Below are positions 57,888 to 64,000 of a DNA stretch of 64,000 bases, piece by piece (the stretch's first letter is position 1; every line of letters begins with the position of its first letter). The notes beneath the pieces were generated by a model, which had not been told where the DNA came from, made no database searches, and worked only from the letters and a program-made list of their open reading frames with translations. The DNA is from Promethearchaeia archaeon (GTDB lineage: Archaea > Asgardarchaeota > Lokiarchaeia > Sigyniarchaeales > SOKP01), in contig JAHQWK010000001.1 of assembly GCA_029856145.1 (NCBI GenBank), positions 544,001 to 608,000 of the forward strand. The letters are read 5' to 3'. The position numbers and the translations under genes were made by a program.

Positions 57888-59891
57888 ATGGCTTATTTCA
57901 AGAATATAGTATTGGTCAAGGCGGAAGGAAATTATTTTGATGCTAGCTTTTTTGAAGCAAACATTCCTCTTTGTTATCTTAGCGCAGTCATAAAAGATCA
58001 CGTGAATTCTGTTACAATGCCTATGGATATGCGTATAGATCTTAGACCATTTGAAAAATATGAAAATCATTTAGTAAAAATGGAAAAAGGAGGTGGGAAA
58101 TGTGATCTTGTAGGAATTTCAACTATGACAGCATCATTTCCCAACGCAATAATACTTGCTAGAATAGCAAAAAAACATGGTGCTTATGTTGTTGTGGGAG
58201 GTTATCATCCTTCTGCTCTTCCTGAAGCAATGTTTAATGTCCCAGAAATTGATGCTGTTGTTCGTGGAGAAGGAGAAATGACTTTAAAAGAACTTGTTCT
58301 AAACGGTCCTTCAACCTTCGTTAAAGGATTGAGCTTTAGGGATGAAAATGGGATTATTTGTCATAATCAGGACCGTGAAAGGATAATGCATCTCGACTCG
58401 TTACCATTTCCAGATAGGAATTTGCGTCCAGAGAACCCTATCTTTAATAAACACGAAGTCGTAGTTACATCACGCGGTTGTAATGGTACTTGTACATTTT
58501 GTGCAAATGATGCTGTACACGGTCGATGGCGAGGTCGTTCCCCAGAAAATGTTGTTGCAGAATTGAAAATGCTACAAAAAAAACACCCAGACTTATCTAC
58601 AGTCCATATATGGGACGCAAATTTTATGCAAGACAGCGAGAGAGTCGCTAAAATCATTAATCTCATCAAAGAAAACAAAATTTACTTCAAATATTTCTGT
58701 GAAATGCGCGTAGATCACATAACTAAACACCCCGATTTAATCAAAAGATTAGCAGAAATAGGAATGGAGTGGATAGCAATTGGTATTGAAAGTCCGTATC
58801 AAGAGCGTTTGAAAAAATTAAAAAAAGGGATTACTACTTTTGCCGTGGAAAAGGCTATCGAAATATTGAAGGAGAACAAAATTAAAATTGTAGGATATTT
58901 AATGATAGGCGATCCGGACGAGACAATGGAGCAAGTGAAGGAGTATCCCGTATATGCAACGAGAGTTGGCATAGATAAGATCATGTTAGCCATACAGACA
59001 CCACATCCAGGAAGCTTATTGTTTAAGGAGATGGCTAAGGAAGGAGCCATAACGTCATATCAATGGGAGAAATACGATATAGGTCATTCAGTAGCAAAAT
59101 TGAAAAATATGACGAATCATGAATGTGAGGTTCTCATGGATTGGTGTTGGGGAAAATATTATAGCCCTGAATGGGCGTTTTCCCGAGAGAGATCGCTAAA
59201 AGAAGCATTTTTTCGATATTTGTCCTTTGTTTGGATTGGTTATCCTGGTTTTTTTATTCACGCACGTTCTAGAGAGACTGTTGAAGAAAATTTAAGAGCA
59301 TATATCTCAGCAATGCAAGGTTATTATGATTTAAGCAAGTATGAATATACAGATGCAGATTATCTCGATGATCTAAGGGGGTATAATTTTCAATTGACTT
59401 TTCGTTTCAGTAATGGAGATGATATTTCTTTGTTAGCTTCAATAGATAAAAACAGCAAGCTAGTGATTGAAATATTTAATGGAAAAAGAAAAGATGTATT
59501 TCTCGATTTTACACTTAATTCAAGTGATTTCATTGATATTCTTAAATCCTTACCCTTACAAATTATTTCGCTCGTACATTGGGCGGGGTTTAATTTTAAC
59601 AACTTGAAAGCAAACATTCATGTCTTTAAGACTTTCTTGTCTATGGTTGCAAAAGCAGTTCGATTGAACACGATAAATTATAAAAAATTAACAAAATATT
59701 TAGTTGTAGGAACAAAATTTCTTCCTAAAAAATTATATGAACTAATCAGAGAAGAAATTCCAATTTTCAACAATAAAAAGAAAAGTGAAGTATATGAAGA
59801 TAATTACATGAAAGCTATAACAAACTCGGTTAGAAATGTTTTATATAAAGTAATACTGTTCCCTTTCACAATTCTCGTTCCTGTTGACTGA
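57888..59891 (+). CDS. B12-binding radical SAM protein with long C-terminal extension (possibly SCP2-like)
   Basis: VGISTMT, VVGGYHPS, RGEGE, TSRGCNGTCTFC, IGIES, TPHPGS; about 230 extra C-terminal aa. Confidence 0.9.
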   Translation: MAYFKNIVLVKAEGNYFDASFFEANIPLCYLSAVIKDHVNSVTMPMDMRIDLRPFEKYENHLVKMEKGGGKCDLVGISTMTASFPNAIILARIAKKHGAYVVVGGYHPSALPEAMFNVPEIDAVVRGEGEMTLKELVLNGPSTFVKGLSFRDENGIICHNQDRERIMHLDSLPFPDRNLRPENPIFNKHEVVVTSRGCNGTCTFCANDAVHGRWRGRSPENVVAELKMLQKKHPDLSTVHIWDANFMQDSERVAKIINLIKENKIYFKYFCEMRVDHITKHPDLIKRLAEIGMEWIAIGIESPYQERLKKLKKGITTFAVEKAIEILKENKIKIVGYLMIGDPDETMEQVKEYPVYATRVGIDKIMLAIQTPHPGSLLFKEMAKEGAITSYQWEKYDIGHSVAKLKNMTNHECEVLMDWCWGKYYSPEWAFSRERSLKEAFFRYLSFVWIGYPGFFIHARSRETVEENLRAYISAMQGYYDLSKYEYTDADYLDDLRGYNFQLTFRFSNGDDISLLASIDKNSKLVIEIFNGKRKDVFLDFTLNSSDFIDILKSLPLQIISLVHWAGFNFNNLKANIHVFKTFLSMVAKAVRLNTINYKKLTKYLVVGTKFLPKKLYELIREEIPIFNNKKKSEVYEDNYMKAITNSVRNVLYKVILFPFTILVPVD

Positions 59892-60158: not shown

Positions 60159-60719
60159 TTATTCAGTTTGAAGTCGTTCTCCCAATTTATAATAATTGAA
60201 GTCACCTCCAGTAGTCCAAATAATTGGATGTATCTTCCTCCAATCGAGCTTGACGTTATCCTCTTCCTTAATAGTGTATTGTTGATTTACATAAGATTTA
60301 ATTACCTTACCAATAATTCCTTCACCATCGCCATAGTCGAGGATTTCATGTACTTCACATTCTATATTTACTGGACATTCACGAATCATTGGGGCTGTTT
60401 TTAATTCTCCGTAAAAATTATCAAAGAGGGAACTTTTATCAATATCCCGTCCAGATTTACTTCCACAAATATTTGTTTTTTCCACGAGATCCTCTGAAGG
60501 GATATTTACACTAAAGGTCATATTCTCATGAATTCCGATTGTAGTATAGCGTGTTGGAGATAAACTGAAGAAAATATACTTGCCAAAATCAAATGGACAG
60601 CTATACCCAATTACCAGATAATTAGGCTTATTATATACATTTGCTCCTACCAAAATCACTGGTAGTGGACTGAGAAGATTTCCTTCAACAATTTGTTTAT
60701 TTAAATTTACTTCTTTCAT
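60159..60719 (-). CDS. Flavin reductase-like (flavoredoxin) protein
   Basis: PLPVILVGA...KPN, FSVNIPS, CGSKSGRDIDK, APMIRECPVNIEC. Confidence 0.9.
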   Translation of the reverse strand: MKEVNLNKQIVEGNLLSPLPVILVGANVYNKPNYLVIGYSCPFDFGKYIFFSLSPTRYTTIGIHENMTFSVNIPSEDLVEKTNICGSKSGRDIDKSSLFDNFYGELKTAPMIRECPVNIECEVHEILDYGDGEGIIGKVIKSYVNQQYTIKEEDNVKLDWRKIHPIIWTTGGDFNYYKLGERLQTE

Positions 60720-60732
60720 TTTTGATTATTTT

Positions 60733-61392
60733 TTATAGTTTTTTTACAATATAGTCAAGGATACAGGTACGTCCTGTATTGAAATAATTTCCTTGCATGA
60801 TATGCCTTTTTTCTTTATAAATTATCTCAAAATCTTTACAATATTTGTCAGGTTCATCATCATCATAAAAACTATGAAGAAACTTTCCATTACCTTCTAT
60901 AGTTATAACTTCACCTGGGTTTTGTTCTATTCCATTACCATAATGATTATCGTCCTTCGAAAGGAAGTTTATATAACAAAGTCCCTCTTTTTTCAGCACT
61001 CTATACATTTCTTTGATGGCAATTCCACTATCAATCTTATTTAAATGAAAAATAGAATTATAAGAAAATACAAAACTAAAAAAATTAGACTCAAATGGTA
61101 TTTTTCTCATATCAGCTTTAATAATTTTTAGTTTTATTCCATTTTCTTCACAATACTCATTAGAATAGTTAATAGAATCTTCCGAAATATCAATTCCATA
61201 AGTTTCAAATCCATTCTCATGAAAAAATGCAAGCTTAGGATTTGAACCACCAGCTCCACAATCTAAAATTTTTTTTTCTAAAGGCACTGAATTCGTGAAT
61301 CTAAGGAAATTATACAATGAAGAGGGATAAAAATTCTGGATCATTTTCCATAAATACCTCATATCTGTTAGTTTTTTAATAATATTTTTCAT
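60733..61392 (-). CDS. Class I SAM-dependent methyltransferase
   Basis: ILDCGAGG, YGIDIS, ADMRKIPF, EMYRVLKKEG. Confidence 0.92.
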   Translation of the reverse strand: MKNIIKKLTDMRYLWKMIQNFYPSSLYNFLRFTNSVPLEKKILDCGAGGSNPKLAFFHENGFETYGIDISEDSINYSNEYCEENGIKLKIIKADMRKIPFESNFFSFVFSYNSIFHLNKIDSGIAIKEMYRVLKKEGLCYINFLSKDDNHYGNGIEQNPGEVITIEGNGKFLHSFYDDDEPDKYCKDFEIIYKEKRHIMQGNYFNTGRTCILDYIVKKL

Positions 61393-61970
61393 GAAGTTTT
61401 ATACTTTTTACCAATCTCAAATGCGGGGGCAAGTTTTTCGCCAACTTTCCAATAATTGTTCAGTGAATATGTATAGGTTTTTAGTTTAGCAATGTCTGGT
61501 ATCCCTTCTGTTAAATATTCCTCATCTGCATAAGCATTTACTACTTTTCCGATAAAAATTTCATGACCTTCCTCGATCTCCACTAATTCCTTTATCTTAA
61601 AGCTTTTAACCAACTCACATTCAAGATTTAGAGGTGAGAGACTAACCATTGGTGCTGTTTTAAGATCCCCGTAAAAAACATCAAATACTTCTGATTTATC
61701 TATTTCTTTTCCTGAAACTATGCCACAATAATCAATCATTTCTGCCAAATCTTCTGAGGGTGTATTAACGCTAAATGTTTCATTTTCCTTAATACCAATA
61801 TTAGTATAATGAGTTTCGTAAGAAGCTATTGAAATTAATGGTGGTTGACTTTCGACAATGCCGACATATGCAAGTGTCTCAAAATTCGGTTTTTCATTCA
61901 CATTTGCCCCGATAAGAGCAACTGGCATAGGAAATAAATAAGCTCTTGGAGGAATTTTATTTTTCTTCAT
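61389..61970 (-). CDS. Flavin reductase-like (flavoredoxin) protein
   Basis: FPMPVALIGA...KPN, FSVNTPS, DYCGIVSGK..DK, APMV..SPLNLEC, HEIFIG. Confidence 0.9.
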   Translation of the reverse strand: MKKNKIPPRAYLFPMPVALIGANVNEKPNFETLAYVGIVESQPPLISIASYETHYTNIGIKENETFSVNTPSEDLAEMIDYCGIVSGKEIDKSEVFDVFYGDLKTAPMVSLSPLNLECELVKSFKIKELVEIEEGHEIFIGKVVNAYADEEYLTEGIPDIAKLKTYTYSLNNYWKVGEKLAPAFEIGKKYKTS

Positions 61971-62112: not shown

Positions 62113-62475
62113 TTAGCCACAACAACCAGTATTTGAATTATCTTCACTGGTTGGTCCACAGCCACATGAATTTTCAATCGCTTTACCTTTTTTTGCATTT
62201 TTAGCTACACCTCTCGCATTCCACAAACATCCACACCCTTTTCGTTCATTCAAGATAATTGCTTGAGTTGGGCAATTTCTCTTACAAGCACTGCATTCTG
62301 TACATAGCTCAGGTCTTGGTATTTCATATTTTCCAGAACTATGGGGTTGTGGAAGTCCAAATGGGCACACTTCAGCACATAGACCACAGCCATTACACAC
62401 ATCTTTATCAATAAAGATTAAAATATCTTTAACAAATTCAGTAAAATCAAATGATTCAAAATTTGTTTCTGTCAT
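62113..62475 (-). CDS. HgcB-like 2x[4Fe-4S] ferredoxin with Cys-rich tail
   Basis: CNGCGLCAEVCP, CTECSACKRNCP (canonical HgcB has C(M/I)ECGAC), GCGC, C-terminal GCCG; 38 nt downstream of the hgcA-like gene. Confidence 0.78.
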   Translation of the reverse strand: MTETNFESFDFTEFVKDILIFIDKDVCNGCGLCAEVCPFGLPQPHSSGKYEIPRPELCTECSACKRNCPTQAIILNERKGCGCLWNARGVAKNAKKGKAIENSCGCGPTSEDNSNTGCCG

Positions 62476-62513
62476 TTTACTTACCTCCTATTTATGTACA
62501 TCTTTTATTTTTT

Positions 62514-63998
62514 TTAAATATATATGGAAAATAAAAATCCTAAAGCTAGAAAAATCAAACTTAGGACAAATAAAATCTTATTAATTAAATTAAAAATTGG
62601 ATATTCCTCTTGGATTTCTCTTGGGCTTGTAGCCATTGTGTAACCACTAAATGACATTATTGAAAAGAATGTAATCCAAAAATAAAAGCATAATTGCCAG
62701 AGAGTATAAAATATGGAGTTATGGATCAAATAAGACAATCCTCCCAAGAAAATTATATTAATTATCCCAAAAAAAATACCTTTAAAAATAAATCTCCTAG
62801 TGAATCTTGAAATTGGGAATAACAGCGCAATAATAAAATTTGATATAATTATCCAAAGCGATAGCTCACCAATCCACCATAACTTGTTAAACCAAGTTAG
62901 GATCGAGAATAGTAGAACTAATCCAATTAGAGGTAGGATAAATATTTTTCGAAATAAAAATGATGTATGAGTTATTCCCCCACGAATTCGATGGAATAAT
63001 GTAAATTTAGCTAATTTCATTCGGTCAGGTTTTTGAGCAGGATTTTCATCAAGAAATTGAGGTATAGATTTTGACCAAACTGGTCCGTATTTAACTCTAA
63101 AAGGGAATTTTTCTGAATTCTTCGGAAGTTGAGGTATAGCTACACCTCCAGCTGAAAGTTGTGGCAGTAATAATGTTTTTTTTTGAGTTATATTTTTTAT
63201 CCCTGTTGCTTCTATTGCCTCAAGAAGTTGCATATTTCCAAAATCATTACCACGAGCGGCACACCATACATTTATGCCGTTTGAATCAATACACAATACC
63301 CACGCATCAAGTCCTTTAAGATCACGCATCACCTTAATATAAGTAAATTCATAATTAGCGGTGACAATTATAGGCGATTTTTCATTAGGATTTCCAGATT
63401 GATAAATCCCGGGTTCGATAGGAACACGATCAACTTGTCCAGTGAAAATACAACGATAAATTCTTAATTGAGATCGAAGTCCCTTAAATCTCTTTATTTC
63501 GGGCCTATAATACCCCGGTTCATTAGTTCCCTTATCATTAATTTTTTGTAGTTCTATCGCTTGGATTGATCCATGCTTCCATTTTATCTGAGTATTGATT
63601 TTAAAACCGATTGGGTCTAAATATTTAAGAAACCACTTAACAAGATAAGTACTTTTTAAACGTAAACGTCTTAATTTCTTTTTATACCGCCATCTTTTAA
63701 ACTTAAACAGTAACTTCCAAAATCCAGAGGGAAAAAATTCAGCGGCTAAAATTAAACGACCATTTGGTTTCAATGATTTCCATACGTTTCTAAGAAATAA
63801 TTGCTGTTCTAAAGGACGAAGTTCAGATAACATAAATTTACTTACTACAATATCTTGAGAACCGTCTGGTGTTGGTAAATCGGTAAATGAACCTGTTTGA
63901 TATAATAGTTTTCCACCAGATAAATCCGTTGGATAATTCTTCATAGCATAATCAATCATTTGAAAGTTTCTGTCAATTGCAATTACATTATTCCCTTT
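62514..63998 (-). CDS. Class I SAM methyltransferase fused to an HgcA-like corrinoid/TM protein (5' end outside the window)
   Basis: Frame open to the window edge (KGNNVIAIDRNFQMIDYA); MTase motifs DIVVSKFMLSEL, LKPNGRLILAAE; HgcA motifs PGIY..GNP...SPIIVTANY, GINVWCAARG, LLLPQLSAGGV, YGPV; 4-5 C-terminal TM helices. Confidence 0.85.
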   Translation of the reverse strand, partial: KGNNVIAIDRNFQMIDYAMKNYPTDLSGGKLLYQTGSFTDLPTPDGSQDIVVSKFMLSELRPLEQQLFLRNVWKSLKPNGRLILAAEFFPSGFWKLLFKFKRWRYKKKLRRLRLKSTYLVKWFLKYLDPIGFKINTQIKWKHGSIQAIELQKINDKGTNEPGYYRPEIKRFKGLRSQLRIYRCIFTGQVDRVPIEPGIYQSGNPNEKSPIIVTANYEFTYIKVMRDLKGLDAWVLCIDSNGINVWCAARGNDFGNMQLLEAIEATGIKNITQKKTLLLPQLSAGGVAIPQLPKNSEKFPFRVKYGPVWSKSIPQFLDENPAQKPDRMKLAKFTLFHRIRGGITHTSFLFRKIFILPLIGLVLLFSILTWFNKLWWIGELSLWIIISNFIIALLFPISRFTRRFIFKGIFFGIINIIFLGGLSYLIHNSIFYTLWQLCFYFWITFFSIMSFSGYTMATSPREIQEEYPIFNLINKILFVLSLIFLALGFLFSIYI

Positions 63999-64000
63999 TT

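Follow-up and report, generated by a model that had tools for sequence, protein, structure and literature searches.

The window analysed here, a 64,000-nucleotide stretch of the genome of a Promethearchaeia archaeon, ends in a gene that joins, in one reading frame, a CpaM-type SAM methyltransferase, a corrinoid domain with a cysteine ligand and five transmembrane helices, and the gene is followed by that of an HgcB-like ferredoxin. Sequence comparison indicates that the encoded protein is not canonical HgcA with an added domain, but belongs to a separate lineage of HgcA paralogues. The fusion itself is an arrangement and not a new function; a CpaM-type methyltransferase accompanies nearly all of these paralogues, often as a separate protein. 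The native role of the HgcA family is a long-standing question, and the presence of a donor-binding domain, a corrinoid and a membrane anchor in one protein, together with a predicted inducer and a cultured carrier, makes the acceptor directly testable.

The minus-strand frame 62514..63998 runs open into the window edge and includes VIAIDRNFQMIDYA, DIVVSKFMLSEL and LKPNGRLILAAE. The preliminary description, which was based on the window only, had proposed a continuous frame extending past the edge and had called for retrieval of the upstream contig; the genome indeed completes an ORF of 555 aa with its start at C9:608181, 181 nt past the window, and the SAM motif ILEIGCGTG lies just outside the window. 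The features of the cassette and its upstream region are as follows.

62514..64000, minus strand: in-window part of the fusion ORF, whose start is at G000:C9:608181
63543..64000, minus strand: methyltransferase domain, aa 1-213, of which aa 1-60 with motif I lie beyond the window
62997..63476, minus strand: corrinoid-binding domain of the CdhD/HgcA superfamily, about aa 236-395
63249..63272, minus strand: cap helix NVWCAARG, with Cys307 at 63261-63263
62517..62996, minus strand: five-helix membrane domain with HgcA-like residues P456, F464, G468, G513 and E526
62113..62475, minus strand: HgcB-like 2[4Fe-4S] ferredoxin of 120 aa with GCGC and C-terminal CC
C9:608250-608819, minus strand: flavodoxin-like gene upstream of the fusion, beyond the window
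C9:608970-608993: candidate ArsR operator, a 24-bp palindrome, beyond the window
C9:609078-609470, plus strand: divergent arsR with a CVCEL motif, beyond the window

The domain order of the fusion is CpaM-type SAM methyltransferase, Cys-ligand corrinoid domain and five TM helices. Pfam matches are Methyltransf_11 at aa 46-145 (E 8e-17), in agreement with the class I methyltransferase read earlier from the frame, and CdhD at aa 239-344. In the AlphaFold model (pLDDT 90, pTM 0.87) five long C-terminal helices span residues 395-427, 431-460, 464-487, 490-514 and 520-554. The best PDB match of the model is the HgcAB model 9a0b, and the corrinoid domain matches PDB 2h9a (E 1.5e-8). Cys307 is invariant and is the equivalent of the Co-ligating Cys93 of HgcA. 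Thus the fold and the cysteine ligand of the "HgcA-type" domain and membrane bundle described at first were upheld, with the qualification that the score is under the cut-off of the HgcA model and the cap helix is non-canonical, with RG in place of GK.

The fusion is a real gene. At least 120 homologues carry both domains; the best 120 are 65-100% identical, nearly all of full length with both domains, and come from several independent sources, and the named hosts among them are Asgard archaea, mostly Promethearchaeota or Lokiarchaeota. Both domains are paired in a single frame in 32 of the 37 genomes of the genus and in 11 of 19 further genomes of the order, and the fusion was also found in the single-contig genomes G005, G045, G050 and G055. 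The dN/dS ratio is about 0.13, with 0.08-0.15 for the corrinoid part and 0.11-0.18 for the methyltransferase part, and the latter values indicate that the N-terminal domain is not decaying. An assembly or frameshift artefact, which had been named as a possible explanation, was ruled out by these homologues, the genus-wide occurrence, the dN/dS values and the single-contig genomes. A plasmid search gave no match, and a scan for sigma-70 promoters and terminators gave nothing exceeding chance.

Family membership was evaluated with NCBIfam models, whose cut-offs are 275 bits for HgcA (NF040863), 99 for HgcB (NF040864), 285 for the HgcAB-like fusion (NF043039) and 180 for CpaM, "corrinoid protein-associated methyltransferase" (NF043040). 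The fusion scores 167.8 bits against HgcA, where the control L062 scores 436, and 170.8 bits against the HgcAB-like fusion, the ferredoxin being separate here; the ferredoxin scores 50.7 bits against HgcB. In the HMM scoring suggested beforehand, both proteins are thus under the HgcA and HgcB cut-offs (167.8/275 and 50.7/99). For residues 3-212 the best NCBIfam match is CpaM at 136.8 bits, spanning the whole model, and the next best CpaM match in the genome reaches 66 bits. The methyltransferase has the N-terminal M-x2-LE-x2-P-x2-YD motif of the family (M6, L9, E10, Y16, D17 and G26 are present) and LSEL. Two other identities were rejected. ArsM shares with the N-terminal domain the class I SAM methyltransferase fold and the ars-operon context, but the score against NF008823 is 34.7 bits (threshold 263) and the As-binding cysteines are absent, the sole Cys in aa 1-213 being that of motif I. 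CdhE/AcsC shares the corrinoid-domain superfamily (PF03599), but the fusion scores 68 bits against CdhE (threshold 306), the CdhE sequences lack the cap-helix Cys motif and an HgcA-type membrane bundle, and a branch with 100/100 support separates the two; nor does the fusion have the make-up of CdhE/AcsC, a soluble protein with an FeS domain at its N-terminus. The source genome has its own CdhE elsewhere.

In the careful corrinoid-domain tree, the fusion falls into an almost entirely Asgard clade (100/91), which is separated from CdhE (100/100), from canonical HgcA (99/85) and from the fused HgcAB-like clade (99/99). Grouping with CdhE had been set in advance as evidence against the HgcA-like reading; the corrinoid domain groups with the HgcA superfamily. 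The CpaM-linked forms are grouped all together at just 87/74, and the AU test does not reject (p 0.24) a tree in which the fusion lineage and canonical HgcA are sisters. A quick tree nests canonical HgcA inside the CpaM-linked lineages; the careful tree gives the opposite, and this nesting is not claimed. Along the cap helix, RG replaces the canonical GK in 41/41 members of the fusion lineage, although the groups had been picked by that very motif, and R-G stands at these positions in 117 of 122 protein records of the fusion.

Parts of this family were already known. Zhang et al. reportedly found in 2023 about 100 Asgard hgcA genes near fused hgcAB, and these are probably in part the same proteins as the fusions. 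Thorarchaeota and Lokiarchaeota sequences were placed in a fused-HgcAB subtree by Lin et al. 2023 (PMC10083202 / bioRxiv 2022.11.21.517362), which is consistent with the present corrinoid tree. In that work the term "methyltransferase" was used of HgcA itself only, the first 327 alignment columns were removed, and the second domain received no comment (PMC10083202). A literature search retrieved no description of a methyltransferase-HgcA fusion, and the acronym CpaM drew mostly unrelated uses. The parts themselves are catalogued: the NF043040/NF043039 module has the same three modules in the same order, and its families give the best HMM matches for both parts. Here, however, the methyltransferase and the corrinoid domain are fused and the ferredoxin is separate, which is the reverse of the catalogued module; moreover, the fusion forms its own clade outside that of the fused forms and lies under both cut-offs, and its ferredoxin retains the GxGC and CC of HgcB, unlike the fused NF043039 forms.

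A survey of methyltransferase-HgcA fusions, as proposed earlier, revealed a dedicated partnership between the methyltransferase and the corrinoid module. The survey took in Asgard genomes together with 80 named loci of diverse phyla. CpaM is fused to or directly upstream of 148 of 155 non-canonical HgcA paralogues (in five of the other seven a contig end truncates the locus) and of 0 of 33 canonical ones (most examined with 1.5-kb flanks), in a set of loci that are mutually non-independent and were found by our own queries. In an even draw of 101 genomes from the phylum of a Desulfobacteraceae bin, CpaM accompanies 7/7 paralogues and 0/32 canonical hgcA hits, and it exceeds the cut-off nowhere else in those genomes. 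The domain trees are concordant, with a rho of 0.78 across 75 thinned loci and with 35 of 41 strong splits in common. Four arrangements of the non-canonical paralogues occur, namely all parts separate, the methyltransferase separate, the ferredoxin separate (the fusion studied here) and all fused; the module that they share is in part catalogued already. The fusion type was also found in Chloroflexota and in a Poribacteria bin, on other tree branches. For a naturally split methyltransferase/corrinoid pair, modelling gave a binding score of 0.46 (best control 0.00); at least 50% of contacts were common to the runs, and the pLDDT of the partner was at least 77. Of the solved pairs 58 of 80 attained this mark, as did 2 of 110 mismatched ones, but at 0.60 or below it was attained by just 7 of the 80 solved pairs and by both mismatches, so that the model lends slight weight to a possible binding of the two proteins. 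The presence of CpaM is a simple marker separating the paralogues from canonical hgcA.

The fusion had also been regarded as a clue to the native role of the HgcA family. Canonical HgcAB takes its methyl group from SAM without such a domain (PMC11588087), and therefore the fusion does not reveal a missing donor.

Several members of the wider family deserve mention. CpaM fusions in a Poribacteria bin and a relative (L136:3269-4855 and L072:5001-6575) have the most HgcA-like corrinoid part among the paralogues scored (231 bits), and are sister to canonical HgcA in the quick tree and basal among the paralogues in the careful tree. In Asgard family f12 (L064, L065, L066 and L068) the cap helix of the three-gene form reads N(V/A)WCGSRGG and its ferredoxin is short and lacks GxGC and CC, and three of these loci lie, as judged by eye, near heterodisulfide-reductase-like genes. 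One Asgard genome carries canonical hgcAB (L062:732-3716, 436 bits), preceded by ArsM-like and flavodoxin-like genes; transfer is suggested by its closest named non-Asgard relatives, which belong to Anaerolineae and are about 75% identical.

The ferredoxin gene follows the fusion after 38 nt, with an AGGAGG site in the gap, and encodes two CxxCxxCxxxC motifs, G80-C-G-C83 and terminal C118-C119; the spacing, the cluster motifs, GCGC and the terminal CC had been described at first. Cys83 is the equivalent of HgcB Cys73. Where the ferredoxin of a fused locus is a separate protein, 44 of 58 contain GxGC, against 29/29 canonical HgcB and 0/78 fused ferredoxin tails; the CC tail occurs in 25 of 29 canonical HgcB and is kept in most ferredoxins of the fusion lineage. 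The metal-binding cysteines are found in 0/8 three-gene forms.

With these cysteines, the cassette could be a working mercury methylase that matches HgcAB in function, contains its own SAM-binding step and has an ArsR link like that of canonical hgcAB. HgcA Cys93 and HgcB Cys73, Cys94 and Cys95 are required for Hg methylation in ND132 (PMC11588087), and equivalents of all four are kept here; the cassette also shares with HgcA/HgcB the Cys-cap corrinoid domain, the five TM helices, the divergent or upstream ArsR and the downstream position of a ferredoxin with two [4Fe-4S] motifs. The fusion has Y260, Y277, W294, D299, F314, F464 and G468 in common with canonical HgcA at positions where the fused HgcAB-like proteins differ, and the tree joining the lineage to canonical HgcA is, as noted, not rejected. 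On the other hand, both proteins lie under their cut-offs, the fusion carries an extra 213-aa SAM domain, its cap helix reads NVWCAARG against N(V/I)WCA(A/G)GK, with the lineage-wide RG noted above, and its ferredoxin reads CTECSAC against C(M/I)ECGAC. Two tested fused-hgcAB organisms did not methylate Hg (PMC5893877), but since those fused forms lack the HgcB cysteines, the result does not transfer to the present lineage. A search of the source genome for merB gave no match, the control being equally silent. Overall, we consider it unlikely that the cassette is a mercury methylase equivalent to HgcAB. For mercury surveys, in which these genes will be met because fusion genes are very common in Lokiarchaeia, counting them as hgcA and discarding them by motif are both unproven.

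The surroundings of the cassette suggest a link to arsenic. The cassette ArsR is 51% identical to the ArsR facing acr3, the only such gene of the genome and that of its arsenite pump, and the intergenic regions of the acr3 and cassette promoters have the 24-bp palindrome in common. A matrix trained solely on acr3 promoters of other genomes gave its highest score in the genome to the acr3 site (28.4 bits), followed by that of the cassette (23.1), and the site ranked third scored 18.6; the palindrome consensus had first been read by eye from all promoters. This second place genome-wide, after acr3, is new here; the catalogued parts and the published Asgard HgcA-like genes were known. A generic ATCAA-N6-TTGAT box did not stand out enough from shuffled sequences (20; shuffle mean 12.7, maximum 19), and the 24-bp matrix was used in its place. 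Based on the acr3-like palindrome and the adjacent CxC-motif ArsR, the cassette is predicted to belong to an ArsR regulon, and its operator may have been copied along with a duplicated arsR.

The link is found in part of the lineage. Of 43 fusions, 8 have an acr3 gene no more than 2.5 kb upstream and 8 more adjoin an acr3-type ArsR, while 27 of the 43 have neither adjacent, and a large subgroup of the genus has a MarR neighbour and no ArsR box. Two families of Lokiarchaeia show linkage to ArsR or acr3, and in a distant Asgard family, too, a gene of the ArsR family lies upstream. In L170 the operon order is acr3, arsM-like, fusion and ferredoxin, and in G055, matched to the cultured Ca. Lokiarchaeum ossiferum Loki-B35, arsR, acr3, fusion and ferredoxin stand together. 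No ArsM orthologue was found in the 97%-complete source genome. Canonical hgcAB is likewise ArsR-regulated and often near ars genes (10.1101/2022.10.17.512643, PMC7438021), and for this reason the genomic context does not separate As from Hg. A metal(loid) acceptor, which had been suggested among others, is plausible in view of the cysteine-bearing ferredoxin and the acr3-type operator.

The reading we favour, tentatively and at somewhat short of an even chance, is a methyl relay from SAM through cobalamin to a thiol-bound metalloid, most likely As(III). The cassette would encode a relay that is anchored in the membrane, depends on a corrinoid and has arsenic or a related metalloid as its inducer. 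The bound cobalamin would be reduced to Co(I) by the ferredoxin, which the adjacent flavodoxin may supply with electrons. The CpaM domain of the fusion would present SAM and methylate Co(I), and the methyl-cobalamin, ligated by Cys307, would transfer its methyl group to a soft metal(loid) bound by the additional cysteines of the ferredoxin (GCGC and CC tail). The selected acceptor would most likely be As(III) or Sb(III), with Hg(II) as a possible side substrate. We infer all the chemical steps, cobalamin binding and the acceptor; the architecture, the conservation, the Cys ligand, the family-wide methyltransferase-corrinoid partnership and the promoter motif common with acr3 were observed. For the canonical enzyme it is established that SAM methylates Cob(I)-HgcAB, with Cys as a ligand (PMC11588087).

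The relay to a metalloid would differ from known arsenic methylation. ArsM methylates As(III) from SAM without cobalamin. Any As methylation by the fusion would have to go through the corrinoid, because the methyltransferase domain lacks As-binding cysteines. In L170 the fusion would be redundant for simple methylarsenite synthesis, because an ArsM-like gene is in the same operon, and this speaks against the metalloid reading. An extended version, which we regard as doubtful, would make the lineage a cobalamin-dependent arsenic (or antimony) methylase distinct from ArsM, with an ancestral three-part form from which canonical HgcAB was derived by loss of the methyltransferase. If true, mercury methylation would descend from metalloid methylation.

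The acceptor could also be organic, such as a lipid, quinone, thiol, peptide or membrane cofactor, with the ars context as a secondary recruitment in some lineages. That most CpaM-linked paralogues lack the metal-binding ferredoxin cysteines (the fused tails and three-gene forms counted above) fits this possibility, as do the MarR-associated subgroup without an ArsR box and the CpaM fold, which in structure comparison resembles small-molecule and phospholipid methyltransferases. The specific retention of GxGC and mostly of the CC tail in the fusion lineage argues against it, and so does the recurrence of ArsR/acr3 linkage in the families named above, which leaves an organic acceptor improbable in our judgement.

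It could further be supposed that SAM only reactivates oxidised cobalamin, in the manner of methionine synthase, and that the main reaction is reductive or demethylating, e.g., dehalogenation or organometalloid demethylation. Reactivation by SAM plus flavodoxin is the MetH pattern, and flavodoxin and flavin-reductase genes flank the cassette; in addition, canonical HgcAB was reported to dehalogenate halomethanes in a preprint (10.64898/2026.04.26.720869). However, the domain is a class I Rossmann methyltransferase and not the MetH activation fold, and SAM use by canonical HgcAB is stoichiometric (PMC11588087). Pure reactivation is accordingly rated as quite improbable, and the relay to a metalloid is retained as the preferred reading.

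Other genes around the cassette were recorded. The plus strand of the window encodes, at 57888-59891 and thus 2 kb from the cassette, a B12-binding radical SAM protein of 667 aa that is extended far at its C-terminus, and no conserved linkage of this gene with the cassette was seen. On the minus strand the ferredoxin is followed, at 60159-61970, by two genes for flavin-reductase-like proteins and one for another class I methyltransferase; this set stands beside the fusion in the closest relatives only. Past the window edge, on the minus strand (L001:8816-8902), a 28-codon ORF with a Cys-Cys pair has a stop overlapping the flavodoxin start, and similar short Cys-Cys peptides occur at the equivalent position in G014, G031, G013 and G015; it may encode a small peptide that binds metal, or be what is left of a gene. 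In five ars-linked loci the ferredoxin is followed by a 106-aa protein with a CACEW motif (L006:3260-3580), which has no NCBIfam match and is possibly a metalloid chaperone.
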